The notes below the pieces were generated by a model, which saw only the letters and a program-made list of their open reading frames with translations, was not told the origin of the DNA and ran no database searches. A stretch of DNA of 64,000 nucleotides, taken from Limisphaerales bacterium. Lineage in GTDB: Bacteria > Verrucomicrobiota > Verrucomicrobiia > Limisphaerales > UBA11358. Positions 18,364 to 64,000 of the stretch are shown here, piece by piece. Position numbers and translations under genes: made by a program. The DNA lies in the NCBI GenBank assembly GCA_025362675.1, contig JANYFN010000226.1, positions 3,835 to 67,834 of the forward strand, in the 5' to 3' direction. Position 1 is the first letter of the stretch. Every line of letters starts with the position of its first letter.

Positions 18364-19965
18364 GTGAAACAATTCGATTTTCTCATTCTCGGCAGCGGTA
18401 TCGCGGGGCTGACATTTGCGCTCAAAGTTGCACCGCATGGTCGCGTGGCCATCGTCACGAAGAAAGATCGCGCGGAGTCGAACACGAACTACGCGCAAGG
18501 CGGCATCGCGTCGGTGACGAGCAAGGAAGATTCTTTTAAGTCGCATGTCAGTGATACGCTGACGGCGGGTGCGGGGTTGTGCAATGAAAGGGTGGTGCGA
18601 ACGATTGTGGAGGAAGGTCCGGCGCGGATCGCGGAGTTGATCGCAATGGGGATGAAATTTTCGGAGAGCAATGCCCCGAGCGAGGACGGCGGCAAGCAGT
18701 TGGATCTCGGGCGCGAGGGCGGTCATTCGGAGCGGCGCATTTTGCACGCGAAAGATGTGACGGGCCGCGAGGTGGAACGGGCGTTGCTGAACGCCGTTTC
18801 CAAGCAGCCAAATATTGAGATTTTTGAAAATCATCTAGGGATTGATCTGATCACCAGCCAGAAGCTGGGCTACGTCGGCGAGAACCGTTGTGTGGGCGCG
18901 TATGTTTTTGATAAAAAAAGTAATCGCGTCAAAACCTTTTCCGCACCGGTCACGCTGCTCGCGACGGGCGGCTGCGGGAAGGTTTATCTCTACACGACGA
19001 ATCCGGATATCGCGACGGGCGATGGCGTGGCGATGGCGTATCGCGCCGGAGCGGCGATCGCGGATATGGAGTTCGTGCAGTTTCATCCGACGTGTCTGTA
19101 TCATCCGAAAGCAAAATCTTTTCTTATCAGCGAAGCCGTGCGCGGCGAAGGCGGCGTGCTGAAGACGCTGGATGGCCGGGAGTTCATGGATAGTTATCAC
19201 GCAATGAAATCGCTGGCGCCGCGCGATATCGTGGCGCGGGCGATTGATAGTGAGATGAAAAAAACGGGCGCGGATTGCGTGCTGCTAGATATCACGCACA
19301 AGCCGGCGAAATATATCATCGAACGGTTTCCGAACATTTATCAGACGTGCCTTAACTACGGCATCGACATCACGAAGGAAGCGATCCCGGTGGTGCCGGC
19401 GGCGCATTATCAATGCGGCGGCGTGGCGACCAACGTCGATGGCGAGACCGATATCGCGGGCCTATACGCGGTGGGCGAAGTGGCTTGCACGGGTTTGCAC
19501 GGCGCGAACCGGCTGGCGAGCAATTCACTTTTGGAGGCGATGGTTTGTGCGCATCGCGCCTCGGTAAAAATATTGAGCACCCCGCCGCCGAAGCTGGAGC
19601 TGAGCATCCCGCTGTGGCAATCCGGTCACGCGACGAATGCGGATGAACTGGTGGTGGTGGCGCATAACTGGGATGAGATCCGCCGTTTGATGTGGGACTA
19701 TGTGGGCATTGTGCGGACAAATAAACGGTTGCTGCGGGCGCAATCGCGGCTCGCGAATCTGCAACAGGAGATCCAGGAATACTATTGGGATTTCAACGTG
19801 ACGGCGGACTTGCTGGAACTTCGCAATATCGCGACGGTGGCGGAACTGATTGTGCGTTGCGCACTGATGCGCCCGGAAAGTCGCGGGCTAAATTACAATC
19901 TGGATTTTCCGGATCTCAATCCCGAGTGGGCGCAGCGTGACAGCGTGGTGCGGCGCGGCAATTAA
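18364..19965 (+). CDS. nadB: L-aspartate oxidase
   Basis: 533 aa with a GTG start. Has the FAD motif DFLILGSGIAGL, plus YAQGGIA, HPTCL and GLYAVGEVACTGLHGANRLASNSLLE. Confidence 0.92.
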   Translation: MKQFDFLILGSGIAGLTFALKVAPHGRVAIVTKKDRAESNTNYAQGGIASVTSKEDSFKSHVSDTLTAGAGLCNERVVRTIVEEGPARIAELIAMGMKFSESNAPSEDGGKQLDLGREGGHSERRILHAKDVTGREVERALLNAVSKQPNIEIFENHLGIDLITSQKLGYVGENRCVGAYVFDKKSNRVKTFSAPVTLLATGGCGKVYLYTTNPDIATGDGVAMAYRAGAAIADMEFVQFHPTCLYHPKAKSFLISEAVRGEGGVLKTLDGREFMDSYHAMKSLAPRDIVARAIDSEMKKTGADCVLLDITHKPAKYIIERFPNIYQTCLNYGIDITKEAIPVVPAAHYQCGGVATNVDGETDIAGLYAVGEVACTGLHGANRLASNSLLEAMVCAHRASVKILSTPPPKLELSIPLWQSGHATNADELVVVAHNWDEIRRLMWDYVGIVRTNKRLLRAQSRLANLQQEIQEYYWDFNVTADLLELRNIATVAELIVRCALMRPESRGLNYNLDFPDLNPEWAQRDSVVRRGN

Positions 19966-27759: not shown

Positions 27760-30516
27760 ATGACGACCATTTCTGATCCTCCTTCCGGCATTGAAGCCGC
27801 TCACGATATCCTGCACCAATCCCGCCGCCGCGCGCTCGATCCGATTTTGTCACCGCGCTCGATCGCCGTGATCGGGGCCACGGAACGTAAACGCAGCGTG
27901 GGGCGAACGGTTTTGAGCAATCTGGTGGCGGGCGGTTTTCCGGGAAAAATTTATCCGGTCAATCCGATTCAAGAAACGATTCTCGGCCTGCACGCGTTTG
28001 CCAATGTCGCCGCGCTGCCGGAAAAACCCGATCTCGCCATCATCATCACGCCGCCGAAAACGGTGCCGGGAATTATTCGCGAATGTGCAGCGGCGGGGAT
28101 TCATGGCGTGATCATCATCTCCGCCGGATTCAAAGAAACGGGCGAGGCGGGCGCAGAACTGGAACGTGAAATTTTAGCGGAAGCGCGGCGTGGTAATATC
28201 CGGATCGTCGGCCCGAACTGCCTCGGCGTGATGGTGCCGGGACATAAATTTAATGCGACGTTTGCGGCGGACATGGCGAAACCGGGCAACGTCGGCTTCA
28301 TTAGCCAGAGCGGCGCACTCTGCACGGCTATTCTTGACTGGAGCTTGAAAGAGAATGTCGGCTTCAGCGCCTTCGTCTCGCTCGGCTCGATGCTCGACGT
28401 GAGCTGGGGCGATTTAATTTATCATCTCGGAGATGATCCGAACACCAAGAGCATTGTCATCTACATGGAATCAATTGGCGATGCGCGCGCTTTCTTATCC
28501 GCCGCGCGCGAAGTGGCGTTGACCAAACCGATCATCATCATCAAGCCTGGACGCACCGCTGCAGCCGCGAAAGCCGCCGCGTCGCACACCGGTTCGCTGA
28601 CGGGTAGCGACGAAGTTTTGCAAGCCGCGTTCCAACGCGTCGGCGTTTTGCGGGTGGATACGATTTCTGAATTATTTGACATGGCCGAAGTGTTGGCCAA
28701 ACAACCGCGCCCCAAAGGTCCGCGTCTCACCATCGTCACCAACGCCGGCGGTCCGGGTGTGCTCGCGACGGATATGCTCATCGGCAGTGGCGGGCAACTA
28801 GCCGATCTCACAGCGGAAACAATGTTGGGGTTGAACCAAATTTTACCACCGACGTGGAGTCATAATAATCCGGTGGATATCATCGGCGACGCCGGCCCGG
28901 ATCTCTACGCGAAGGCCGTGGACCTTGTGGCAAAAGATCCGAACACCGATGGCTTGCTCGTGATTCTCACGCCGCAATCCATGACGGACTCAACGGCCAC
29001 CGCCGAAGAATTGGTCGCCTTCGCGCACATCGAAGGCAAGCCGATCATCGCGAGTTGGATGGGCGTGGGCCAAGTGGAAAAAGGTGAGGAAATTCTTAAT
29101 GCCGCAAAAATTCCCACGTTCAAATATCCCGACCGGGCGGCCAAAGCGTTTTATTACATGTGGAGTTATACGGAAAACTTGCGCTCACTCTACGAAACGC
29201 CGCAGCTGCCGTTGCAGAGTGCGAATGGCTACATTGACCGCCCCGCCGCTGCGAAAATTATCAACGCCGTGCGCAATGACGGACGCACGATCCTCACCGA
29301 GTTTGAATCCAAAGCGTTGTTGGCCACCTACAGCATCCCGATTGTGGAAACTCACATCGCGCTCACCGAGAGCGATGCCGTCAAAGAAGCGGCGCGGCTG
29401 GGTTTCCCGGTCGTGTTGAAATTACATTCCAAAACCATCACGCACAAAACGGATGTCGGCGGCGTGCAACTTAATTTGCGCACGGCTTCGGCGGTGCGTC
29501 AGGCGTGGAAAGCAATTGAATCTTCCTGCACCAAAAAAGCCGGCGCTGAACATTTTCAAGGCGTGACGGTGCAACCGATGATCAAGCTCGAAGGTTACGA
29601 AGTGATCCTCGGCAGCAGCGTCGATCCGCAATTCGGCCCGGTATTGTTATTCGGAACCGGTGGACAATTAGTAGAAGTTTACAAAGACCGCGCGCTCGGT
29701 TTGCCGCCGCTCAACGCCACGCTCGCGCGACGCATGATGGAGCGCACCAAAATTTTCACCGCGCTCAAAGGCGTGCGGGGCCGCAAGGCTTCGGACATCG
29801 GCGCGCTGGAACAATTGCTCGTGCGCTTCAGCCAGCTCGTCGTCGAGCAACCGTGGATTTCTGAAATCGACATCAATCCCCTGCTCGTCTCTTCGGAAAG
29901 AATTTTCGCCCTCGACGCGCGTGTCGTTTTGCACGACCTGAAAACGCCCGAATATAAATTGCCGCATCCGGCCATCCGGCCTTATCCGACCCAATATGTC
30001 ACGCCGTGGTTGATGAAGAATAAAGCCCCCGTGACCATCCGCCCAATCCGCCCCGAGGATGAACCGTTGATGGTGAAATTTCACGAAACCCTTTCGGAAG
30101 AAAGTGTCTATCACCGTTATTTCAGCGCCCTAAATCTTTCTCAACGCATCACGCACGAACGGCTCACGCGCATTTGTTTTAATGACTATGATCGCGAAAT
30201 CGCACTGGTCGCCGAAATCAAAACTCCCAAGGAAGAGAGCGGCGGAAAAATTCTCGGTGTCGGACGTTTGAGCCGCATCCACGGCACCAACGAGGCGGAA
30301 TTTGCCATCCTCATCAGCGACCATTCACAGAATCTCGGCCTCGGTTTAGAACTGCTTAAACAGCTCGTCGAAGTTGGTCGCGCCGAAAAAATGGACCGCA
30401 TCGTGGGCGAAATTCTGGCGGAAAACCATGCCATGCGGCACCTCTGCAAAAAACTTGGGTTCAAGGTCGTGGCCGATGCCGAGCAACGCACCTGCGCCGC
30501 CGTCTTCACATACTGA
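27760..30516 (+). CDS. NDP-forming acyl-CoA synthetase-like / C-terminal GNAT fusion (Pat-type architecture)
   Basis: 918 aa. Has a CoA-binding domain ([14 protein letters not shown]), a succinyl-CoA-ligase-like domain with SHTGSLTG, an ATP-grasp region, and a C-terminal GNAT (RYFS..., GLGLELL). Confidence 0.85.
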
Positions 30517-51925: not shown

Positions 51926-53365
51926 TTACGTTTCCGAAATGGCATCGGCGGAATCAGGATGCAACCCAAGCTGTTTGAGTTTTTCGCGCAAGGTAAAGCG
52001 GGACAAGCCCAGCCAGCGGGCGGCTTTGGCTTGATTACCTTCGGCCAGCGTGATGGCTTGCGTCAAAATTTCGCGTTCGGCTTCGGCCAGCATCTGAGTA
52101 TGGGCGTCGGCCAGTCCGCCCTGCTGCGCCCGCGCCAGCAAATCACTGGCAAAGGCGGTGAAGGAATTTCCAGCCGGTGCCGTCTCCGCGTTGCGGGCGG
52201 CCAGGGTTTGGCGAACGGCGTCGGCGTTGATGGAGAGTCCGCGCGCACCGAGCAAGAGACGCCGGGTAATGTTCTCTAATTCACGGACGTTGCCCGGCCA
52301 AGCATCGGCTTGCAACCCGGCCAAAGCATCCGTGGTAATTGTTGGATTTTCCACGCCGAAGTCGCTGGCATATTTACGTAGAAAATGTTGCACCAACACG
52401 GGAATGTCTTCTCGCCGCTCGCGCAGTGGCGGGAGTTGGAGGCCCACCACGTTGAGACGATGGAACAAGTCCTCGCGGAATTTCCCGTCGCGAATCATCG
52501 CTTCGAGATTGCGATGCGTGGCGGCGAGGACACGCACGTCCACGGAAATCGACTCTGCCCCACCGACGCGTTGGAAAGTTTGTTGCTGGAGCACGCGCAA
52601 CAGTTTCACCTGCGTGTTGAGCGGCAGATCGCCGATTTCGTCCAAGAACAGCGTGCCTTTGTTCGCTTGTTCAAAACGTCCGATGCGCCGCTGATCCGCG
52701 CCGGTGAACGCCCCGCGTTCATGACCAAACAGTTCGCTCTCCAAAAGATTTTCGGGAATGGCCGCGCAATTGATCGCGATGAAAGGTGCTTTGGCGCGCG
52801 GGCTGTGCTGGTAAATCGCGCGGGCAATCAATTCTTTTCCCGTGCCGGTTTCGCCGCGAATCAGCACGGTCACCGGCTTGGCAGCGACGCGTCCGATTTC
52901 TTTGCACACGTCCTGCAACGCGCGACTGGTGCCGACGAGGGCGGTGCGGCTCTCCACTGGCGCGTCGGCCAAAGTGACGGGTTCACGCATGAGGCGGCTG
53001 GCGTCCACGGCCCGTTGCAGCACGCGGAGAAGTTCCGGCATCTCGAAGGGCTTTTGCAGATAATCGTAGGCGCCGAGCTTGGTCGCTTCGATGGCCGTTT
53101 CAATCGTGCCGTGCGCCGTCATCAGCACGACGGGCAGGCGCGGCTGAAGGGCGTGAAGTTGTTTCACGAGCTCCAAACCGCCGAGCCCGGGCAGACGCAG
53201 ATCCGTCAACACCACGTCACATTCGTCTTTGTTGGCGCGGCGCAGTCCCTCATCGCCGCGATGGCAAACCGTGACTTTGAAACCGTCGTCCTTGAGCACG
53301 TCGCACAAGTTTGTGGCGAGGCTGGTATCATCTTCGATGAGCAGAATGTGGGCGGCTTTGGGCAT
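51926..53365 (-). CDS. Sigma-54-dependent response regulator (NtrC/ZraR-type enhancer-binding protein)
   Basis: 479 aa. Has a receiver domain (ILLIEDD...VVLTDLRLPG), an AAA+ domain with GETGTGKE and the GAFTGA motif (ERGAFTGA), and a C-terminal Fis-type HTH. Confidence 0.92.
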   Translation of the reverse strand: MPKAAHILLIEDDTSLATNLCDVLKDDGFKVTVCHRGDEGLRRANKDECDVVLTDLRLPGLGGLELVKQLHALQPRLPVVLMTAHGTIETAIEATKLGAYDYLQKPFEMPELLRVLQRAVDASRLMREPVTLADAPVESRTALVGTSRALQDVCKEIGRVAAKPVTVLIRGETGTGKELIARAIYQHSPRAKAPFIAINCAAIPENLLESELFGHERGAFTGADQRRIGRFEQANKGTLFLDEIGDLPLNTQVKLLRVLQQQTFQRVGGAESISVDVRVLAATHRNLEAMIRDGKFREDLFHRLNVVGLQLPPLRERREDIPVLVQHFLRKYASDFGVENPTITTDALAGLQADAWPGNVRELENITRRLLLGARGLSINADAVRQTLAARNAETAPAGNSFTAFASDLLARAQQGGLADAHTQMLAEAEREILTQAITLAEGNQAKAARWLGLSRFTLREKLKQLGLHPDSADAISET

Positions 53366-53461: not shown

Positions 53462-54874
53462 CTAATGGATCGCACTGGTTTTAGCACTGCCTGCAATGTC
53501 GCCAATTTCACGCGGCAAGACAACGCCGAAGGTGGTGCCGTGGCCGGTCTGCGTTTGATACTGGAGCGCGCCGCCATGCTTTTCGACAATGCGCGCGGCG
53601 ATCGGCAGACCGAGACCGGTGCCGGTTTCCTTCGTGCTGAAGAACGGATCGAACAGACGCTTCTCTGCTTCCGGTGAAATGCCCTTGCCCGTATCAATCA
53701 CTTCCAGAATCACGGCGTCGGTCTCGCGCCCGTTAAGCGGGGTGCGTGTGGCGCGGGCGCAGAGCGTTATTTTACCTTCGCCGTCAATCGCATCTGCACC
53801 GTTGCGAATGAGATTGATCAGCACCTGTTTCAAATGGCCGCTATCGGCGCGGATGAATAAATCCGTGCTGGATTCAATGCCCAATTTCACGGCGCGACTC
53901 TCCAAGTTGGGCGACATCAATCCTTGAATTTCGCGGAGCAATGTATCGACCGCGAGGGGTTCCATCTTGGGGTCGGCGGGCCGCGCAAAACTCAGCACGT
54001 CTTGCACGATGCGTTCGAGGCGGGAAATCTCCGAACTTATGATGTCCGTGTCTTTGCGCGCGGCCGGCACGGACTGGAGATGTTTTTCCAAAGTGTAGAG
54101 GCGCGCTTTGAGCGACGTGAGCGGGTTGCGGATTTCGTGGGCGATGCCGGCGGCGAGCGTGCCGAGCGTGGCCAGTTTTTCCTGTCTTTCGAGCAAGTCC
54201 TGACTGTGAACCAGCTTGGTTCGCAGCGGCGCAATCATGTCCCGGTAGATCACCCAACCCAACGCCGCGACCAGCGCCAGCAAAAACACGATACTCAGCA
54301 TGAGAATTTTCCGAAGGCTGTCGAGCGACGCGGTGGCATCGGCCAGAAACCCAGACTGCGCTGCGCGGTGTGCGTCGGACAAGCCCCGCACGAGTTCGCG
54401 CATCCGTTGCGCTTGGACATTGAAGTCGTCGAGTTGCGCGAGTTGCCCTGAACTCACCAAAGCGGGTTGGGTATTGGAATGCACAGCGTGGGCAGCACTT
54501 AAATAATCATCATAGGCGACGTTGATTTTCTTGAATATCTGACGCTCAGTTTCCGTGGTGAGAATCGTATGCGGATTCAAGCTGACATCATGGTCATCAA
54601 TCCAATGATTGAGGTCGTCGCTGGCCTTCTCGAACTGCGCCCATTGCGGCGCGTCTCGCACCAAAGTGTAGTGCAGCATGGAATCATTCAGACTCTGTAA
54701 GCCACGGCTGACTTCGCGCGCGAGTTGGAAACTTTCGAGCTGGGAACTGGTCAGCCGGGTCTCAAGCTGCCGCACGTGTTGCCACGCAGAGGAGAGCGCG
54801 TAGATCATTCCGCTCGCCACCACGATCAACGCGGCAATCAAAATCCAGAGACGGAAACCAAACGGAGATTTCAT
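53462..54874 (-). CDS. Membrane sensor histidine kinase
   Basis: 470 aa. Two TM segments flank a ~150-aa periplasmic helical domain. Has the H-box AAGIAHEIRNPL, an N-box LINLIRNGADA, and G-boxes DTGKGI / GTGLGL. Confidence 0.9.
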   Translation of the reverse strand: MKSPFGFRLWILIAALIVVASGMIYALSSAWQHVRQLETRLTSSQLESFQLAREVSRGLQSLNDSMLHYTLVRDAPQWAQFEKASDDLNHWIDDHDVSLNPHTILTTETERQIFKKINVAYDDYLSAAHAVHSNTQPALVSSGQLAQLDDFNVQAQRMRELVRGLSDAHRAAQSGFLADATASLDSLRKILMLSIVFLLALVAALGWVIYRDMIAPLRTKLVHSQDLLERQEKLATLGTLAAGIAHEIRNPLTSLKARLYTLEKHLQSVPAARKDTDIISSEISRLERIVQDVLSFARPADPKMEPLAVDTLLREIQGLMSPNLESRAVKLGIESSTDLFIRADSGHLKQVLINLIRNGADAIDGEGKITLCARATRTPLNGRETDAVILEVIDTGKGISPEAEKRLFDPFFSTKETGTGLGLPIAARIVEKHGGALQYQTQTGHGTTFGVVLPREIGDIAGSAKTSAIH

Positions 54875-54927
54875 AATTATTTCAGCGCGCTGTGTTTGGG
54901 TTGGACCAACGCTTCGATGGCCGACGA

Positions 54928-54943
54928 TGCAAGTGCCGTGCCG
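54928..54943 (-). promoter_or_regulatory. Sigma-54 (-24/-12) promoter candidate for the kinase/EBP operon
   Basis: The minus strand reads CGGCACGGCACTTGCA, against consensus TGGCACG-N4-TTGCW. GG/GC spacing is exact with one mismatch. It lies about 55 nt upstream of the kinase ATG (54874). Confidence 0.55.
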
Positions 54944-55015
54944 TGAAGTGTGACACCGTTAGACCATTACCGCACGTTGAATATGCGCGCTGCGCTGACC
55001 GCCCGGCATTTCCTC

Positions 55016-55049
55016 GCCGGATAAAATGGGTCATCCATTTATCCCCGGC
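55016..55049. promoter_or_regulatory. Imperfect palindrome, candidate enhancer (UAS) between divergent sigma-54 promoters
   Basis: Sequence gccGGATAAAATGG-gtcat-CCATTTATCCccggc. Its centre is about 90 bp from the minus-strand -24 element and about 100 bp from the plus-strand -24 element. Confidence 0.4.
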
Positions 55050-55130
55050 ATGGTAAGTCATTTTCCCATGCACCAGCTCCGGCACCCGCGATCGATTCTC
55101 AAACCCCTATGAATCAACCTTTGTGACCGC

Positions 55131-55146
55131 TGGCATGGCGCGTGCA
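55131..55146 (+). promoter_or_regulatory. Sigma-54 (-24/-12) promoter candidate for the receiver-protein genes
   Basis: TGGCATGGCGCGTGCA against TGGCACG-N4-TTGCW. GG and GC are at the correct spacing with two mismatches. It lies about 55 nt upstream of ATG 55200. Confidence 0.5.
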
Positions 55147-55199
55147 TGAATCTCTCTAAGATCGTAGAAAACAAGTGCATTAAGAAACCAACAAACATT

Positions 55200-56099
55200 A
55201 TGAAACTAAATATTCACACCCTGTCTATTGCACCAAGAATCCTGGTCGCGGAAGACAATCAAACCATCCGCAACCTCATGTTTCGGGCCTTGGCCAGCGA
55301 GGGCTTCGAAGTGACCATGGTTAAGGATGGCGAGGAGGCGTGGGATGAATTGCAGCACCAACCCTATGATCTGCTGGTCACCGATAACGAAATGCCGCGA
55401 CTCGCCGGACTGAATCTCATCGAGCGAACGCGCCACGCGGGCCTGAGTCTGCCGGTTATCCTGGCTTCCGGCTCGGTTTCCGCTGAGATCATTCAGGATT
55501 GCCCGCAACTAAAAATCGCAGCGGTCGTGGTAAAACCATTTAACATCTGGGAATTTCTCGACACCGTGCGCCTGACCCTTGGGATTTTTGTGACCGAGGC
55601 GACTGTTCCCGAAGAAGTTTATGCCGACTCGACTACGCCGCCGACCTCATACGCAAGAACATCTGCCCCGCTGCACAATCATGTTTTGATTGCCGACGAT
55701 GACGCGGTAGTGCGTGGCAGTCTGGCTGCCGTGTTGCAATCCGAGGGCTACGAGGTGGAGGAAGCGAGCAACGGTATCGAAGCTGTCACCCGCGCCATCC
55801 GCCACAAACCGGACTTAGTCTTGCTCGATCTCAATATGCCGCACGCCGATGGCTGGACGGCTTTTAGTCAATTGGAACAGGTCAAACCGCTCCTGCCAGT
55901 CATTATCATCACCGCCCGGCCCAATCAATACTTGGAGGCCGTGCGCGTGGGGGTGGATGCCTTCATGGAAAAACCGTTGAACATCTCGGTTTTGGTCAAC
56001 GCAGTGAAACGGCTGACCACTGAGGATGAGCATCGCCACGACAATCGCATCACCAAACACACGTTTATCACCCAGTTGCTTGGCAGCACGGTTTCGTGA
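55200..56099 (+). CDS. Tandem double-receiver (REC-REC) response regulator without an output domain
   Basis: The ORF opens at 55146, but that would overlap the promoter candidate. ATG 55200 gives MKLNIHT.. followed by RILVAEDNQ. Both REC domains have acceptor Asp contexts (LLVTDNEMP; LVLLDLNMP). Confidence 0.8.
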   Translation: MKLNIHTLSIAPRILVAEDNQTIRNLMFRALASEGFEVTMVKDGEEAWDELQHQPYDLLVTDNEMPRLAGLNLIERTRHAGLSLPVILASGSVSAEIIQDCPQLKIAAVVVKPFNIWEFLDTVRLTLGIFVTEATVPEEVYADSTTPPTSYARTSAPLHNHVLIADDDAVVRGSLAAVLQSEGYEVEEASNGIEAVTRAIRHKPDLVLLDLNMPHADGWTAFSQLEQVKPLLPVIIITARPNQYLEAVRVGVDAFMEKPLNISVLVNAVKRLTTEDEHRHDNRITKHTFITQLLGSTVS

Positions 56100-56163
56100 C
56101 GGAAGAAACCTTGGAGTTACAAAACTGGAGTTTGCTCCGTTTAAAAAATCACCTCCCATAACG

Positions 56164-56718
56164 ATGAAAAAAAACACCGCTCCAAAAACTGCAACCACGC
56201 AGCACTATCCAACGCATCAGTCTGGTCGGACGACAGCGCCGGATCACGCTGTCAGCCACCAGCTCAACAACCGTTCGCGCTCCGCCAAGCGGATTTTGTT
56301 GGTGGATGACGACCCGACCGTGCGTGACTCTTTGAAAGAGGTGCTGATTGGCGAAGGATATGCCGTCATTCCGGCCGCGAACGGCGAGGAGGCTTTGCAT
56401 CTCGCCGCCCGGCTGCCGATTGATCTGGCGTTGCTCGACTTGAACATGCCGGTCATGAATGGCTGGGAAACGTTTCAACAACTTACCTTCGAACATCCGC
56501 TCATCCCCGTCGTCATCGTCACGGCGAAACCAAACCAGCTTTTCACTGCGGTTGGAGCGGGTGCGGGTGCGTTGCTGGAGAAACCAATGGAAATTCCGAC
56601 GCTCTTGCAAACTATCAAAAAACTGCTGAACGAACCCGCCCGCAACCGGCTGGCACGCCTGACGGGACAGGAAACCGATTTTCATTACCAGTGCGCCAGC
56701 CGCGATCCGGCTCACTAA
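56164..56718 (+). CDS. Single-domain response regulator (REC)
   Basis: ATG 56164 (MKKNTAPK...). The REC core is RILLVDDDPTVRDSLKEVL...LALLDLNMPVMNGW...VVIVTAKPNQ. It is a paralogue of the second REC domain of the upstream gene. Confidence 0.8.
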   Translation: MKKNTAPKTATTQHYPTHQSGRTTAPDHAVSHQLNNRSRSAKRILLVDDDPTVRDSLKEVLIGEGYAVIPAANGEEALHLAARLPIDLALLDLNMPVMNGWETFQQLTFEHPLIPVVIVTAKPNQLFTAVGAGAGALLEKPMEIPTLLQTIKKLLNEPARNRLARLTGQETDFHYQCASRDPAH

Positions 56719-56723
56719 CACCC

Positions 56724-57110
56724 ATGGATTCCGAACCACTTGATCCATCAAACTTGCCACCGGCGTGTTCGCCGCTGCCAACCCAGATTGCCGGGCGGGC
56801 GGTGTTAATTTTCGTCCGCAGCAGCACGGTGATTTTTTTGATGGCGGTTTTTTGGTTTTACGAAGCCGCAACCTTGCAAAGGATTTTATCAAAATTGCTG
56901 TGCGCTATCCCAAAGTTGTTCCGCATCTTTTTTCGGCGCGCTAAGCCGACGCCTAATCGTGCTGCCATCCCACCTGAGAATTTTCAACCAGACACCGCTC
57001 CGCTCGATAAATGCCAGAACAATTTTCATGACGCTTGGACGCCGCCCGCGCCCCGGGCTTGCTTCGAGCGCCACCGGCTCATGCGGATTCATACCCGGGA
57101 TAACTTTTAG
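56724..57110 (+). CDS. Hypothetical small membrane protein
   Basis: A 128-aa frame starting 5 nt after the REC gene stop, with one clear hydrophobic helix (AVLIFVRSSTVIFLMAVFWFY). No recognisable family. It could be a spurious ORF. Confidence 0.3.
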   Translation: MDSEPLDPSNLPPACSPLPTQIAGRAVLIFVRSSTVIFLMAVFWFYEAATLQRILSKLLCAIPKLFRIFFRRAKPTPNRAAIPPENFQPDTAPLDKCQNNFHDAWTPPAPRACFERHRLMRIHTRDNF

Positions 57111-57146
57111 TTCGAGACTCGCGGTGGTGAGCTGCGCGAAATGGTT

Positions 57147-60100
57147 TCAGTGGATTTGCTGGCGCGGCGCGGAGACAGTTGCCGCATTCGTTTTCCGCTC
57201 CACCAGCAAGTAAATTGTCGGCAGCAAGACCAGCGTCAGCAGCGTGGCCGAGACCAGTCCACCGATGATGACGACGGCAAGGGGGCGTTGTGTTTCCGAG
57301 CCGATGCCGTGCGATAGCGCCATCGGCAACAGTCCGAGAATCGCCAATAACGCGGTCATCATGACGGTGCGCAAGCGGTCCCCCGCGCCTTTCAAAACGG
57401 CGTCATAAGTCGTCAAGCCCTCGTCTTGCAGCTGGTTGAAACAACTAACCATCACCACCCCGTTGAGCACGGCCTGGCCGAACAGCGCAATGAAACCGAT
57501 GGAGCCGGAGACACTCAAGGGAATTCCCGTGAGCAGCAACGCGACAATTCCGCCGATGAGTCCCAAGGGCACGTTGACCAGAATCAACAGCGCACTTTTC
57601 ACGGACTTGAACGCGTTGAAGAGCAAAATGAAAATCATGAAAATGCTGATGGGCACGATGATTGACAGTCGTTTCATGGCGCGCTGCTGGTTTTCAAATT
57701 CGCCACTCCACGTCACGAACCAGCCGTGCGGCAGGGGAAATTTTGCGAGCCGCGCCTGCATATCCGCCACCACGCTGCCCATGTCGCGGCCTTGGATGAA
57801 GACGCTGATGGCGGAGAGACGCGTGCTGTCTTCACGGCTGATGTTCATGCTGCCGCTCGTCTCCTTGAACGTGGCAACTTGTTCGAGCGGGATGTGCAAT
57901 CCGTCCGGCGTATCCACGAGAATTTTTTTCAGATTGGCGAGGCTGCGTTGGGCTTCCGGCAGGCGAACGATGACACTGAAATGCTGTTCGCCCTCCCAGA
58001 ATTCCGTGGCGGCCTTGCCCGCAAGTCCAGTTTCAATCACGTCCTCGATATCGCCGATGTTCAGTCCGTAGCGCGCCGCCGCCTTGCGATCAATCTCGAT
58101 GTTCGCCTGCGGCACTTCACCCGCGCGGTCCACGGCGGCGGCGCTGACTCCCCGCACGCTGGCGATGACTTTGCACATTTCTGCGGCCTTTTGGCGCAAG
58201 GCCGTCGAGTCATCACCAAAAACTTTGATGACCACCTGGCCGTCAATCTGCGAAATACTTTCGAGCACGTTGTCCATGATCGGCTGGTCGAAACTGAAAT
58301 CGAGGCCGGGCAACGTGTTGAGATTCCGGTTCATTTCAGCAATCAGTTTTTCCTTCGTCATGCCGAGTCGCCATTCGCTGGGCGGTTTCAAGTCCACAAA
58401 CGTTTCCGACATGTTGATCGGCTTCGGGTCCGTGCCGTCTTCGGGCCGACCGGATTTGGAAATGACCGTGCGCACCTCCGGCGTTTTGTGCAGCCGCTCG
58501 CGCATCGTGCGACAGTAGCTGCGCGCCTGCTCGACGGAAACGCTCGCGGGGAAATTGACGTTCACCCAGATGGTGCCTTCATTCAATTCCGGCAAAAATT
58601 CCGAGCCAAGCCGACCGGCCAGCAGCAGGCTGACGGCGAGGCAAATCAAGGCCGAGGTGATGATCCATTTTGGACGCGCCAGTGCCCAGCGCAACGTGGC
58701 GAGGTAAGGTTTTTTGACGAAGCGCACGACGGCATTGTCCTCGTGCGGAACTTTTTTTCGCAACAGAAAAAAGCACAGCAGCGGCACGAGCGTCAGCGAA
58801 AAAATCAGTGAGCCAACCAGCGCGCTCGTCACCGTCCACGCCATCGGCGCGAAGATGCGGCCTTCGTGACGTTGCAGCGTGAAGATGGGAATGTGCGCGG
58901 CGATGATGATGAGCATCGAGAAAAAAGTCGGCCGGCCGACTTCCACGGTCGCGTGTTCGATGGTGGTGCGGAATGTTTTGCGGTCGCTGCCGGGCTTCAA
59001 TTCGCCGAGCCGCCGGAAAACATTTTCCACCACGATCACCGCGCCGTCCACGATGATGCCAAAGTCCATCGCGCCCAATGAAAGCAAGTTCGCGGGAATG
59101 CCGCGCCACGTCAGCCCAACGAACGTCGCGAGCAGCGACAGCGGAATCATGAACGCAACAATCATCGCCGCCCGGACATTGCCGAGAAACAGCAGCAGCA
59201 CGAGCGTCACCAGAATTGCGCCCGTGGCGAGGTTTTCAAATACCGTGTGGAGCGTCGTGCCGATCAGCCAGGTGCGGTCGTAGTAAGGAACAATTTTTAC
59301 ACCCTTCGGCAATATAGAAGTGTTGAGCGTTTCAATCTTGGCCTTGAGCGCCTTCAAGACTTCGGAGGGATTGTCGCCCTTGTGCATATCCACGACGCCG
59401 AAAACAATGTCGTCGTCTTTGTCTTGGCCGGCGATGCCCTCGACCGGCAAATTGCCGAGCGTGACTTCCGCAATATCTTTCACCAACACCGGCGTGCCTT
59501 TGTGCGCGGTGATAACGATGTCTTTTATTTCATCGGCGGACTTCAGCATCCCGACGCCGCGAATCAAATACTGCTGCGCGCCTTGCGTGACTTTGCTGCC
59601 GCCAACATTGGCGTTGCCGCGACCGAGCGCGGTGTAAAGTTGCGACAAGGCAATGCCGTAATAACGCATCTTCGCGAGGTCAGGATTCACCTCGTAACTT
59701 TTGACCAAGCCACCGAAAGTGACGACGTCCGCCACACCCGGCACGGCACGCAGGTTGCGTTCGACGACCCAATCTTCGAGCGAACGCAGATCGCGCGTCG
59801 AATAGCCATCGCCCTGCAAACGGTAGCGGAAAATTTCGCCGATGGGCGTCGAGAGCGGCTGAAGTTGCGGCTGCACGCCGGGCGGCACGTCAATCGTCGT
59901 GAGACGTTCGAGCGTTTGCTGACGCGCCTGCATATCCGTGGTGTTGTCGTCGAACGTCAGCACGATGTAGGACAACCCGAACTGCGTGTGCGAAAACATG
60001 CGCACCGCGTGTGGCATTCCATTCAGCGCCGACTCGATGGGAATCGTGACCTGTTTCTCGACTTCCTCCGGCGCGCGTCCGGGAAACAGCGAGATGACAT

Positions 60101-60242
60101 TGACCTGAATATCCGAGACATCGGGAAACGCCTCGATGGGCAGATGAATGTAGGCTGCCACGCCACCACCGATAAACAGCACCGCCATCAATACGATGAA
60201 AAATGGCTGGTGCAGCGCAAAACTGACAACGCGTTTAATCAT
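57147..60242 (-). CDS. CusA/CzcA-family heavy-metal efflux RND permease
   Basis: 1031 aa with the 12-TM RND topology. HME-type motifs include AMDFGIIVDGAVIVVEN and GFIALFGQAVLNGVVMV. Confidence 0.9.
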   Translation of the reverse strand: MIKRVVSFALHQPFFIVLMAVLFIGGGVAAYIHLPIEAFPDVSDIQVNVISLFPGRAPEEVEKQVTIPIESALNGMPHAVRMFSHTQFGLSYIVLTFDDNTTDMQARQQTLERLTTIDVPPGVQPQLQPLSTPIGEIFRYRLQGDGYSTRDLRSLEDWVVERNLRAVPGVADVVTFGGLVKSYEVNPDLAKMRYYGIALSQLYTALGRGNANVGGSKVTQGAQQYLIRGVGMLKSADEIKDIVITAHKGTPVLVKDIAEVTLGNLPVEGIAGQDKDDDIVFGVVDMHKGDNPSEVLKALKAKIETLNTSILPKGVKIVPYYDRTWLIGTTLHTVFENLATGAILVTLVLLLFLGNVRAAMIVAFMIPLSLLATFVGLTWRGIPANLLSLGAMDFGIIVDGAVIVVENVFRRLGELKPGSDRKTFRTTIEHATVEVGRPTFFSMLIIIAAHIPIFTLQRHEGRIFAPMAWTVTSALVGSLIFSLTLVPLLCFFLLRKKVPHEDNAVVRFVKKPYLATLRWALARPKWIITSALICLAVSLLLAGRLGSEFLPELNEGTIWVNVNFPASVSVEQARSYCRTMRERLHKTPEVRTVISKSGRPEDGTDPKPINMSETFVDLKPPSEWRLGMTKEKLIAEMNRNLNTLPGLDFSFDQPIMDNVLESISQIDGQVVIKVFGDDSTALRQKAAEMCKVIASVRGVSAAAVDRAGEVPQANIEIDRKAAARYGLNIGDIEDVIETGLAGKAATEFWEGEQHFSVIVRLPEAQRSLANLKKILVDTPDGLHIPLEQVATFKETSGSMNISREDSTRLSAISVFIQGRDMGSVVADMQARLAKFPLPHGWFVTWSGEFENQQRAMKRLSIIVPISIFMIFILLFNAFKSVKSALLILVNVPLGLIGGIVALLLTGIPLSVSGSIGFIALFGQAVLNGVVMVSCFNQLQDEGLTTYDAVLKGAGDRLRTVMMTALLAILGLLPMALSHGIGSETQRPLAVVIIGGLVSATLLTLVLLPTIYLLVERKTNAATVSAPRQQIH

Positions 60243-60463
60243 GAGAAAAATTTATTGAATGGGTGGGCAATTCGCGCTGCGACTCGACACCGACCGCGCA
60301 CGGTCGCTTTGTGGTGCGGCTACTTTTAGGCACACGAATGATTCCGTCACCGGACGCTGCGCTCGGCGACGGGTTTTTCGCAGCGCGAAAAACTCCACCT
60401 TGCCAACAGCGCCAGCGGCAAAAAAAAGCTCAGAAAATTCCATGGAAAAATTTCCGCGCGAAC

Positions 60464-61597
60464 TTATTCCAAGAGTTGTTGCAATAGCACGCAGCCTTCC
60501 GTCACAACTTGCTGACCGGCCCGCAGTCCGTTCAGAACCAGCGCGCGGCCATTCTGCTCCGCACCAAGGGAAACTTCTCGCCGCGTGAATTCCCCCGGCT
60601 TTTCCTGCACGAAAGCGAAATGTTTTTCGCCCTTCAAAAAAACCGCCGTCGCCGGCACGCTGATGCCCGGGGCACCCGCATCCGGCAGATTCACATTCAC
60701 AAACATCTCCGCTTTGAGCAGCCGTTGCGCGTTGTCCACCGCGCCACGCACCTTGATCGTGCGCGTGTTCGGATCGAGAAATTCTGAAACTTTTTCCACG
60801 CGTCCGGTGAAGGTCTGTTCGGGAAAGGCGCGGCTGGTGAACGTGAATTCACTGCCCGGTTGCAAGCGCGGCAAATCAACTTCCGTCGCATCAATCTGAA
60901 TCCACAAATGCGCCGGATCACTCACGACGAACAACGGTGCGGTGACTTCCGGCATATTCGCCAGCATCTGATCGGGACGGATTTCTAGGCCCGGACTAAC
61001 ACTCTTGTCCACGACCGTTCCGGCCAACGGACTGCGCAGCGAAAATATTTCATCCAGCGAATCCGCGTTGGCACCATAAGCCGCGATTTTTGAAACGGCG
61101 CGCGCCCGTTCCGCCTCGGCCTGCGCGTGGGCATCTTCCGCCGCGTCCAAATCTTTTTTCGCCGCCGCGCCGTGAGCGAACAATTCCTGAAGCCGCGTCA
61201 GGTTGCGCTCCGCTAATTTCAAATCACCCTCCGCTTTGCGCGCGTCGGCCTGCGCCTGTCCAAAATCCGGCGATTCCACTTCCGCCAGCGACGCATTTTT
61301 TGCCACCGTCGCGCCGAGGTCCGCCGTGATTTTGCGGACGCGCCCGGCGAACGGTGTGAAGACGCGCACGGTCACATCGTCATTCCAAATCAGCCGGCCT
61401 GAAAGCTGGGTGCTGGCCGACGCGCGCGCTTCAACCGCTGTGACGGCAACCGAGGACAGTTGTGGCGAATCGGGCGGGAAAGAAATTTTTTCGCCGCTCA
61501 CTTTGGGGTCGCCCGCAGCCTCCGGCGGGGTTTCATGTCGGCAACCCGACACCAGCAACGCGAACATGAAGCAGTTTAGAATTCGGATGATTTTCAT
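60464..61597 (-). CDS. Efflux RND periplasmic adaptor (membrane fusion protein) lipoprotein
   Basis: 377 aa with lipobox LLVSGC. Has a biotinyl-lipoyl-like hairpin and a coiled coil (AQADARKAEGDLKLAERNLTRLQELF) typical of CzcB/CusB. Confidence 0.88.
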   Translation of the reverse strand: MKIIRILNCFMFALLVSGCRHETPPEAAGDPKVSGEKISFPPDSPQLSSVAVTAVEARASASTQLSGRLIWNDDVTVRVFTPFAGRVRKITADLGATVAKNASLAEVESPDFGQAQADARKAEGDLKLAERNLTRLQELFAHGAAAKKDLDAAEDAHAQAEAERARAVSKIAAYGANADSLDEIFSLRSPLAGTVVDKSVSPGLEIRPDQMLANMPEVTAPLFVVSDPAHLWIQIDATEVDLPRLQPGSEFTFTSRAFPEQTFTGRVEKVSEFLDPNTRTIKVRGAVDNAQRLLKAEMFVNVNLPDAGAPGISVPATAVFLKGEKHFAFVQEKPGEFTRREVSLGAEQNGRALVLNGLRAGQQVVTEGCVLLQQLLE

Positions 61598-61613
61598 AAG
61601 GACAGGCAGCCAT

Positions 61614-61841
61614 TCATTGCGCCGCGATCGGAGAAGATTTTAAAAATTTCGCCCGACGGTTTTTTGGTTTTTCAATCTGGACCGGAACTTTCGGCGATAG
61701 CGGACTGGCACTCGGCACCGGCGCGGGTTCATTGGCCGCCCACAAGCATGCGGCATCGGCTTTGTGCAATTCCACCGCGCGGATCCAGTCGAGCAACGAT
61801 TGTTTAGGGCGGACAAATGTATTGGGAGATTTCCGGCTCAT
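61614..61841 (-). CDS. Hypothetical 75-aa protein wedged between the outer-membrane factor and adaptor genes
   Basis: The ATG lies 4 nt after the upstream TGA (61846..61848) and the stop lies 16 nt before the adaptor ATG. No family was recognised. The support is positional only. Confidence 0.35.
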   Translation of the reverse strand: MSRKSPNTFVRPKQSLLDWIRAVELHKADAACLWAANEPAPVPSASPLSPKVPVQIEKPKNRRAKFLKSSPIAAQ

Positions 61842-61845
61842 GGGT

Positions 61846-63165
61846 TCAGTTGTTAATGGATGCTTGATCGGTGGCGGCCTTGAAATCAGCAGCCGCGCTG
61901 GCGGCATCGGCCAGTGCCTGCGCGGTGGCGAGCCGGGCGTCATTGTCGGCGCGCTCGGCTTGCAGCAAATCCACCAGCGACGCGCCGCCCTTTTCATAAG
62001 CGAACGCCACCGACTCGCGCACTTGCTGAGACTTCGGCAAAATCTGATTTTGATAGCGCGCCAGCCGTCCGTTGGCTTCGTGAAATTCGGATTGCGCATT
62101 CGCGATGTCCGCCGCCCACTGGGCCCTAACTTTGGCAAGCGCCAGAGAACTTTTTTCCACGGCCGCCCGCGCGGATTTAATCTCGCCGCGATTCCAATTC
62201 CACAGTGGGAGCGGAAAGGAAATGCCCACGCCCACGGTGTCTTCCGGCGGGCCGCCGCCCGGCGGGTTGTGCTCGGCGAGAATAGAAAACGTCGGGTCGG
62301 GAATCCGCATCGCCTGCTGCAATTGCAAATCAGATTTAGACTGTTTCAAATCAGCCTCCGCTGCGAGCACGTCCGCCCGCATGGAATTGGTCTTGGCTTC
62401 GATGATCGGTGGTGCGGAAAAACTCATTTGCGCGAGCGAATCCGTCGGCGTCCAATTTCCCCCGGGCTTTTCCACGCCCAACAAAATTTCGAGCGCGATC
62501 CGCGATTGCGCGGCGATCGCTTCGGCGGACGTCGCCTGCAACTCAAAAACATCCGCGTTGTTTTCAATCTGTTTTTCGTCGGAATCGGAAATGTCTCCGG
62601 CCTGCAAGCGCACCTGCGCGATTTCTCTTTCATGCCGCAGCATCCGGGAAGATTCGTTCAGGATGCGGGCATTTTCCCCGGCAAGCAGGGCCGCGATGTA
62701 AGCCTTCGTCACGCCCTGTTCCAGCAACCGCCGCGCATCAATAAATCTTGCCCGCGCACCCGCCACGCCCGCGTCGGCGGAAAGGTTGCGATCATGCCGC
62801 TTACCGCCGATTTCGATGAGTTGGTTGACGGCAAAAATCGTGTCATAACTGCGACTCCAAAGCCCGTTACCCAAAGCCGTGCCGCTGTCATGCGAACCGA
62901 TTTTGGACGTGGCCAGGGAAAAAGTGGGGTTGGGAAATTCCTTTGCGATGAGGCGTTGCGCCTCGGCGGCGGACACCCCGCTGTTCGCCGCCAGCAAATC
63001 CCAATTGCGCTCAAAAGCTATCCGCTTTACCTCAGCGAGCGAGAGCCCGAACGGCGCAAGATGCAGCGGCGGCGTTGGCTGGGCACTAGTGGGGACAAGG
63101 CCCAATTGCATTATGACCAACGCCGCGCCGCAAATTTTTTTAACCAAAAAAAAGTATCTTTTCAT
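61846..63165 (-). CDS. TolC-family outer-membrane efflux protein (CzcC-like)
   Basis: 439 aa with a signal peptide. Has two OEP repeats with the characteristic long helical segments (LLAANSGVSAAEAQ..., VLAAEADLKQSKSDLQLQ...). Confidence 0.88.
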   Translation of the reverse strand: MKRYFFLVKKICGAALVIMQLGLVPTSAQPTPPLHLAPFGLSLAEVKRIAFERNWDLLAANSGVSAAEAQRLIAKEFPNPTFSLATSKIGSHDSGTALGNGLWSRSYDTIFAVNQLIEIGGKRHDRNLSADAGVAGARARFIDARRLLEQGVTKAYIAALLAGENARILNESSRMLRHEREIAQVRLQAGDISDSDEKQIENNADVFELQATSAEAIAAQSRIALEILLGVEKPGGNWTPTDSLAQMSFSAPPIIEAKTNSMRADVLAAEADLKQSKSDLQLQQAMRIPDPTFSILAEHNPPGGGPPEDTVGVGISFPLPLWNWNRGEIKSARAAVEKSSLALAKVRAQWAADIANAQSEFHEANGRLARYQNQILPKSQQVRESVAFAYEKGGASLVDLLQAERADNDARLATAQALADAASAAADFKAATDQASINN

Positions 63166-63450
63166 GCCTTAACCAACTGCTTCTGACGCCAATGGTTTTG
63201 ACCTGTATTTATTTTCCGAACGAATCGCAGTCGTGGTTCAGGTTATTCACCAGGAATATTTCCAGACTTCAACTTGAGTTTTCGCAATCATTTTCCAAAG
63301 TGCCCGCCGCCGCGCAAACGGGCGCGTTCTGTCCGCCGGGATTAACGCAGCCAGTGAGCAGCTGGGTGGAAAAGCCAGCCACTCGCCTTGCAAAACTTGT
63401 TTTCAAAAAAGTTTTTTTAATCACATTTACCGAGCAGATAAAGCGGTGTT

Positions 63451-63466
63451 AGCTACTCGCGTGCCA
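63451..63466 (-). promoter_or_regulatory. Sigma-54 (-24/-12) promoter candidate for the efflux operon
   Basis: The minus strand reads TGGCACGCGAGTAGCT, against TGGCACG-N4-TTGCW. The -24 element is a perfect match and the -12 GC is at the correct spacing. It lies about 285 nt upstream of ATG 63165. Confidence 0.5.
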
Positions 63467-63621
63467 ATGGATGCATAGGGCAATTCCCCAATGTTTTCAA
63501 AGTGATTTCTATGACAGCAGGTTGCGGGTGGTCAATGAGTTGTCACGTCGCCGATAAATAAGTTTCCCATTCAGTTCCGGGCGGAAGTCTCGAACGCGTT
63601 GCGTTTGCCCAGTCAAACCAA

Positions 63622-64000
63622 TTACTCCCCGCGCGACGCGCGTGCGTGACCGTTCGCGTCTGGCACCACTGATTTACCTGCGAGCTTTGAATTTTGGAAT
63701 TTGGATTTCATCACTCCATTCGCAAACTCCGATTGCAACAATCCATAAATGGCGTGGTCGGCGTAATGATCGTGCAGCCATTCGATGCCGCGAATGATGC
63801 CGTCGAGCTGGAAGCCGAGCCGTTCGGGAATGGCGCGGCTCCGGTAATTTTCCACCGCACACTGAATCGTGATGCGGTTCAGCTTCCAAGTATTGAAACC
63901 ATGAATCAACAGCGCGTGGCAACACGACGTCATGATGCCCTTGCCTTGCTGACCTTCATCGAGCCAGTAACTCAAGGCCGTCCAACGGTTCGGCCAGTCC
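63622..64000 (-). CDS. GNAT-family N-acetyltransferase (RimJ/RimL-like), 5-prime end outside the window
   Basis: The frame stays open to the window edge. The GNAT core is YWLDEGQQGKGIMT...RITIQCAVENYRSRAIPERLGFQLDGIIR. Confidence 0.75.
   Translation of the reverse strand, partial: DWPNRWTALSYWLDEGQQGKGIMTSCCHALLIHGFNTWKLNRITIQCAVENYRSRAIPERLGFQLDGIIRGIEWLHDHYADHAIYGLLQSEFANGVMKSKFQNSKLAGKSVVPDANGHARASRGE

Follow-up and report, generated by a model that had tools for sequence, protein, structure and literature searches.

Predicted divergent sigma-54 promoters and a tandem-dyad enhancer between a two-component system and receiver-only genes in a soil Verrucomicrobium

A spacer of 325 bp (54875-55199) that parts minus-strand kinase and activator genes from two plus-strand receiver genes was analysed in the genome of a soil Verrucomicrobium (4.31 Mb, 93.6% complete) and, judged from its sequence, is a real, well-supported and conserved divergent sigma-54 switch. 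Positions are those of the window, by which we mean the whole stretch of 64,000 nucleotides that was analysed. It is likely that the adjoining activator, phosphorylated and bound at two tandem dyads (A1 and A2; Table 1) in this shared spacer, drives both of its promoters and probably two distal ones. In the mechanism proposed, the adjacent kinase would phosphorylate the NtrC-family activator, which would then bind A1 and A2 on the same face of the DNA. DNA looping, possibly aided by a bending protein at two conserved boxes, would allow the looped activator to switch on the RNA polymerase-sigma-54 waiting at both outward-facing promoters, with positive autoregulation of the kinase/activator operon expected from the kinase-facing promoter and induction of the REC-REC and REC genes from the receiver-facing one. 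In this genome the same activator would probably also drive two promoters 8-10 kb away, which front a CzcCBA-type metal-efflux operon and the gene for a His-rich protein; given these targets, metal or envelope stress is a possible stimulus here.

Genes and divergent promoters of the spacer

Genes and sequence elements are collected in Table 1. The activator carries the GAFTGA motif, at residue 218, as had been read from the sequence before, and has the recognition helix SRFTLREKL; its NCBIfam scores lie below every equivalog cut-off. The ~165-aa helical sensor of the kinase was assigned to no Pfam family. An rpoN gene, on whose presence the earlier note had made its promoter assignment depend, was found: the genome encodes one RpoN, an intact protein of 537 aa with activator-interacting, core-binding and DNA-binding domains and the RpoN box ARRTVAKYR. 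Rfam gave no match at E <= 0.1 across 54700-64000, and a scan for sigma-70-like promoters and terminators gave no match within the spacer.

Table 1. Positions of genes and of predicted promoter and enhancer elements. Positions are those of the window except where a locus or contig is named.
Feature	Position	Strand	Sequence and remarks
NtrC-family enhancer-binding response regulator (activator)	51926..53365	-	REC, AAA+ sigma-54 interaction domain, Fis-type HTH (Pfam)
Sensor histidine kinase	53462..54874	-	two membrane-spanning segments flanking the helical sensor, then HisKA and HATPase_c
Kinase-facing sigma-54 promoter (predicted)	54943->54928	-	CGGCACGGCACTTGCA; matrix 15.8 bits; GG-N10-GC
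Conserved box, kinase side	54971..54986		consensus GCAGCACnTTGAAAAT; between enhancer and kinase-facing promoter; 0.76 vs 0.62 background
Imperfect palindrome	55019..55044		GGATAAAATGG-N5-CCATTTATCC; only centre and right arm in conserved sequence
Enhancer dyad A1 (predicted)	55028..55044		GGGTCATCCATTTATCC; clade consensus GGTCA-N6-TTATC; conservation 0.80; overlaps right arm of palindrome
Enhancer dyad A2 (predicted)	55051..55068		TGGTAAGTCATTTTCCCA; TGGnAAGC-N-TTTnnCCA; conservation 0.77; also found as inverted repeat
Conserved box, receiver side	55100..55124		cccTGTGAATCAnC, ATCAA core; between enhancer and receiver-facing promoter; IHF-like, one mismatch
Receiver-facing sigma-54 promoter (predicted)	55131-55146	+	TGGCATGGCGCGTGCA; matrix 15.5 bits; GG-N10-GC
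REC-REC protein	55200..56099	+	299 aa, two canonical receivers (Pfam)
Single receiver protein	56164..56718 (start approximate)	+	184 aa, low-complexity N-terminus; paralogue of REC-REC second domain
CusA/CzcA-family RND pump	60242..57147	-	TIGR00914, 1025 bits
Adaptor	61597..60464	-	
Outer-membrane factor	63165..61846	-	followed by a 75-aa ORF
Lipoprotein ORF	63424..63269	-	51 aa, lipobox LLTGC and three further Cys
Third sigma-54 promoter (predicted)	63466->63451	-	TGGCACGCGAGTAGCT; matrix 14.95; fronts lipoprotein ORF and CzcCBA-type operon
Tandem dyads B1 and B2 (predicted)	63529-63545; 63552-63568		TGGTCAATGAGTTGTCA and CGATAAATAAGTTTCCC; starts 23 bp apart
Fourth sigma-54 box (predicted)	L056 1857->1842, just past window end	-	TGGCACGAATGTCGCT; dyads 1919-1935 and 1942-1958
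His-rich protein	L056 1352-1780 = G000:C272:68151-68579	-	142 aa, two helical repeats and HHHHHH run; behind fourth promoter, followed by RimL-like GNAT gene

The earlier note had placed two -24/-12 boxes, one facing the kinase/activator operon and one facing the receiver genes, each with exact GG-N10-GC spacing; positions, strands and spacing were all borne out when the letters were read again, and both boxes resemble TGGCACG-N4-TTGCW. Transcription from the kinase-facing promoter would start near 54917 and that from the receiver-facing promoter near 55157, with a predicted 43-nt leader in each case, the second of them reaching to the ATG at 55200. A plain consensus search allowing up to 2 mismatches returned 21 matches in the window against 16.4 expected, which is not above chance; as this was uninformative, a weighted matrix was used instead, with frequencies after the compilation of Barrios et al. 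(1999); its scores are approximate and not those of a fitted model. A genome-wide weight-matrix scan, which had been proposed together with the boxes, placed both of them within the top 40 sites, only 40 of 8.6 million genome positions scoring at least 15 bits. The chance expectation at that threshold is ~0.0014 per strand of the 325-bp spacer and ~2e-6 for an outward-facing pair. Of the top 40 sites, roughly one in three falls outside ORFs. No genome-wide excess of matrix matches was seen at this threshold (40 sites, compared with 58 in a second-order Markov-simulated genome), and position and conservation were therefore weighed along with score.

Sigma-54-like boxes of 15.2-15.8 bits were also found inside ORFs of 534-963 aa in the window (16062-16077 and 18773-18788 on the plus strand, 28619-28634 on the minus strand); these three are probably chance or non-productive sites. 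Elsewhere in the genome (G000), five near-identical boxes (TGGCATGGCnnGTGCT; C277:8707, C176:4687, C223:2878, C101:13239 and C267:325), mostly in ORF-free DNA, look like a separate multi-copy sigma-54 regulon. Those on C277, C176 and C223 precede paralogous ~206-aa genes whose products end in ...QVRAIGGSTG.S.WS.PV; the box at C101:13239 has an upstream repeat identical to that of C277, and no ~206-aa ORF was found there by script; at C267:325 the same box precedes a different gene, of 246 aa.

The start of the REC-REC gene was placed at 55200, in agreement with the earlier preference for this codon over the ATG at 55146. The latter is made up of the last base of the -12 box and two more, and so lies upstream of the start predicted near 55157; it is missing from all 14 other orthologous loci in the alignment, and the short-form homologues, which start with MKLN... 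or MKPK..., are like the protein read from 55200. An MNL... start at 55146, which would resemble long-form homologues, was considered and rejected: long-form proteins have their MNL start well downstream of the promoter, by 335 nt in the closest relative (L113), where an additional ORF of 76 aa comes in between, and the resemblance is thus three residues of coincidence. This ORF (L113 5739-5969, plus strand) was assigned to no family; it sits between the receiver-facing promoter and the REC-REC gene and is absent from the window.

Conservation was followed in orthologous loci. A DNA search of 60 relatives returned only one syntenic locus, and protein-anchored loci were therefore used instead (30 same-genus loci and ~35 loci from soil and peat metagenomes). 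Most of the same-genus and metagenome loci preserve the arrangement activator<-kinase, ->receiver gene. In 15 of 15 non-redundant loci, which have spacers 40-60% identical to that of the window, both boxes keep their GG and GC unchanged, and the mean majority fraction is 0.88 in the kinase-facing block, 0.85 in the receiver-facing block, 0.77-0.80 in the dyads and 0.62 in the remaining spacer. Spacing is similarly fixed: A2 lies 78-80 bp from the plus-strand box and 107-109 bp from the minus-strand box (74 bp in one locus), with variation of ~1 bp in most loci, and in two loci the A2-promoter spacing differs by close to an integral number of helical turns. Rarity, conservation, the intact rpoN and the activator together argue for the arrangement first proposed, in which an activator site is flanked by two sigma-54 promoters that face away from each other.

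The two promoters differ in how far they can be followed. In 23 more distant loci of the genus (kinase 45-48% identical), a receiver-facing TGGCAYG-N4-nCGCT box was found in 20, and, besides the window, its three closest relatives have a receiver-facing sigma-54 box too; the kinase-facing box is confined to this clade and one other subclade. As the first is widespread and the second clade-limited, receiver induction would be old and autoregulation specific to some clades. In the clade of the window, autoregulation of the kinase/activator operon, as claimed before, is likely, given the kinase-facing GG and GC that do not vary in the 15 loci.

On this distribution the receiver gene can be read as the one deeply conserved target. 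The primary output of the kinase/activator pair would then be an inducible free-standing receiver, serving as a phosphate sink or timer or as a second-tier signalling protein, and the lineage would later have gained the REC-REC duplication-fusion, autoregulation and a metal-efflux island via the same enhancer at 84 bp; we hold this history to be a tentative one, with a minor share of the probability. The REC-REC protein has >100 homologue clusters, and NCBI names one close homologue as from a Verrucomicrobiae bacterium. The best NCBIfam match of its domain 1 is CpdR, below cut-off. Pfam found no output domain in the REC-REC and REC proteins, and all three free receiver domains have the acidic pair, phospho-Asp, Thr/Ser and Lys. 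Their alpha-1 helices read (T/V)(V/I)R... as opposed to SLA... in the receiver of the activator, so that sharing of the kinase is only plausible. Phospho-acceptor residues without an output domain would suit a phosphate sink or a feedback role for the induced receivers, roles that the earlier note had put forward together with a phosphorelay; partner binding, or cross-talk to another kinase, would be alternatives.

Absence of the kinase-facing box from most distant orthologues also bears on whether that box is productive. It might bind sigma-54 unproductively, as a silent or roadblock site, and the operon of kinase and activator would then be expressed constitutively from an unrecognised housekeeping promoter: a two-component system needs basal expression, which a purely activator-dependent promoter supplies poorly, and Verrucomicrobial housekeeping promoters may not fit the sigma-70 scan used. 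An E. coli study describes intragenic non-productive sigma-54 sites as common (PMC4591121). We consider this improbable, however, because the box has the same GG and GC in all 15 loci, faces the operon at 43 nt from the predicted start to the ATG, and keeps its distance to the dyads in all but one locus.

Tandem dyads and a palindrome between the promoters

A central palindrome, 90-100 bp from each -24 element, had been taken for the activator site in the earlier note. The palindrome is present, and the distance roughly holds, its centre lying ~90 bp from the minus-strand -24 and ~100 bp from the plus-strand -24. It is imperfect, with one indel between the arms GGATAAAATGG and GGATAAATGG; a gap-free repeat finder did not report it and returned GCATGGTAA/TTCCCATGC at 55048-55071 instead. 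Its standing as the activator site was not upheld: the majority fraction is 0.64 in the left arm and 0.62 in the background, and in L113 the GGATAA part is missing. Conserved instead are two 17-18-bp dyads of the form TGGnnA-N5-TnnCCA with starts 23 bp apart, of which A2 had been missed on the first reading.

A palindromic dyad matrix of 17 bp was trained on distant orthologues, with this locus and its two nearest relatives left out. A2 is its best match in the 64-kb window (15.5). A1 reaches ~3.4 by hand sum, under the 4-bit listing cut-off, and is supported by its clade conservation and by the 23-bp register with A2, as in two other enhancers of the genome. Among 25 orthologous spacers, TGG-N11-CCA was the top non-homopolymer dyad (10 vs 2.3 expected); A/T runs dominate the enrichment list under a mononucleotide shuffle, and for that reason only rank among non-homopolymer dyads was used. 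The motif is degenerate, with 61 genome matches at >=15 and 124 at >=14.

Several observations speak for the 26-bp palindrome as a single symmetric activator site, with A2 incidental. Arms of 10-11 nt would seldom arise by chance within a 325-bp spacer, the folding of the stretch is better than that of shuffled sequences (z = -2.75), a GATAA-type half-site recurs (55020, 55039-55043 and 63553), and in several orthologues GGTCA takes the place of the GGATA that this genome has ~10 bp upstream of A1. We nevertheless give this reading little credence, since the left arm is conserved no better than background and its GGATAA half is lost in L113, the independently trained matrix picks A2 and not the palindrome, and the two other enhancers of the genome consist of paired 17-bp dyads, with starts 23 bp apart, without such a long palindrome. 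A1 and A2 are kept here as the predicted pair of activator sites.

On either side of these dyads stands a further conserved box (Table 1). Both boxes, GCAGCACnTTGAAAAT and cccTGTGAATCAnC, fit the IHF consensus inexactly and are possibly sites of a DNA-bending protein; three HU/IHF-family genes are present in the genome. The sequence CACTTTGAAAAC also occurs between the RND enhancer and the RND promoter described below, and may be a candidate site for a bending protein there.

One subclade (L042, L047, L049-L052 and L054) differs in its kinase-facing box (GGGCAYGGGTTATGCA), and instead of TGG-N11-CCA dyads it has TTTGCAG repeats. The recognition helix of its activator reads SRITMKAKL, compared with SR(F/L)TLREKL elsewhere, and activator and site may be co-evolving in these loci. 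We infer that the adjoining activator is the one that binds the dyads; as the covariation of the helix motif comes to two or three independent clade events, it was taken as supporting evidence and not as proof.

A predicted four-promoter regulon around the locus

Two further promoters with dyads were found near the locus, the third in front of the CzcCBA-type operon and the fourth in front of the His-rich protein gene (Table 1). With the matrix from distant orthologues, B1 is the second-best dyad match in the window (14.0) and B2 scores 9.0; the two dyads of the fourth promoter score 17.7 and 14.7. When a promoter of >=14.8 was combined with a dyad of >=14 at 70-116 bp, only four promoters were returned genome-wide, all within 10 kb on this contig. 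Looser cut-offs gave 7 promoter-dyad pairs genome-wide with the dyad upstream, compared with 1-2 in a downstream control at the same distances. From the enhancer centre to the GG of the -24 element the distance is 85 bp for the receiver promoter, 84 bp for the RND promoter, 83 bp for the His-rich promoter and 106 bp for the kinase promoter, which is two helical turns further, so that all four promoters are in helical phase.

The 51-aa lipoprotein ORF begins ~15 nt after the transcription start predicted near 63439 for the third promoter and occupies what would otherwise appear to be a leader of 286 nt ahead of the outer-membrane factor gene; its product may be a small metal-binding lipoprotein. 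The operon as a whole (57147..63424, minus strand) is a probable member of the regulon in this genome only. In none of the three closest relatives does the RND operon adjoin the two-component system, and a query with the outer-membrane factor gave no match in four genomes (G162, G089, G020 and G035). An orthologue of it in a further genome (G027) has neither sigma-54 box nor dyad and stands beside an apparent LuxR-type regulator (DNA read by eye). As the RND link is not conserved, the metal connection would be specific to this genome. The 142-aa His-rich protein has no clear signal peptide and matched no Pfam family above cut-off.

That the promoters are real while another of the 11 true sigma-54 activators of the genome drives them (for example that of a paralogous kinase/activator pair, 5 kinases of the genome being related to this one), the adjoining activator acting elsewhere, is very improbable: although the dyad motif has many genome matches, the kinase/activator pair, spacer and receiver gene stay linked in the loci examined from a 163-genome family search, the recognition helix changes in the same subclade in which the site motif changes, and strong pairs of promoter and dyad are confined to the surroundings of this locus.

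Significance and comparison with known systems

The analysis provides a base-level map of a Verrucomicrobial sigma-54 switch (promoters, dyads, spacing and likely start codon) and corrects the start of the REC-REC gene to 55200. The predicted compact regulon of four promoters would, in this genome, connect the two-component system with metal efflux, and the locus lends itself to the study of a two-component system that has a receiver-only protein as its conserved target. A literature search of limited extent found no paper on Verrucomicrobial sigma-54 promoters; the architecture itself is already textbook, as in zraP/zraSR and glnAp2.

In the NtrC enhancer at glnAp2, and in systems of the NtrC1/DctD type, two adjacent dyads about two helical turns apart lie ~80-110 bp upstream of a -24/-12 promoter and are served by a REC-AAA+-HTH activator. 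The locus shares with these the tandem dyad sites upstream of a predicted -24/-12 promoter and an activator of the same domain order. NtrC is also the best NCBIfam match of the activator, but its 528.8 bits fall below the TIGR01818 equivalog cut-off of 558.6, so that the protein does not rank as NtrC proper. Unlike glnAp2, the spacer has no nitrogen genes nearby, and one enhancer here would serve two opposite promoters.

The closest known case is zraP/zraSR (hydHG) of E. coli and Salmonella, in which ZraR drives its own operon and a divergent gene from divergent sigma-54 promoters (PMC4987338). The host here belongs to another phylum, and the divergent genes encode REC-REC and REC proteins and not a periplasmic chaperone of the ZraP/Spy/CpxP type. 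Kinase and regulator fall short of equivalog status, at 190.8 against the ZraS cut-off of 479 and 387.9 against the ZraR cut-off of 760, and the dyad motif TGGnnA-N5-TnnCCA is one derived from this locus family. The likeness lies in a sensor kinase paired with an NtrC-family regulator and in divergent sigma-54 promoters for operon and target, which are predicted here from the DNA letters; ZraS is the second-best NCBIfam match of the kinase, and the CzcA-type pump and the His-rich protein make a link to metal plausible here.
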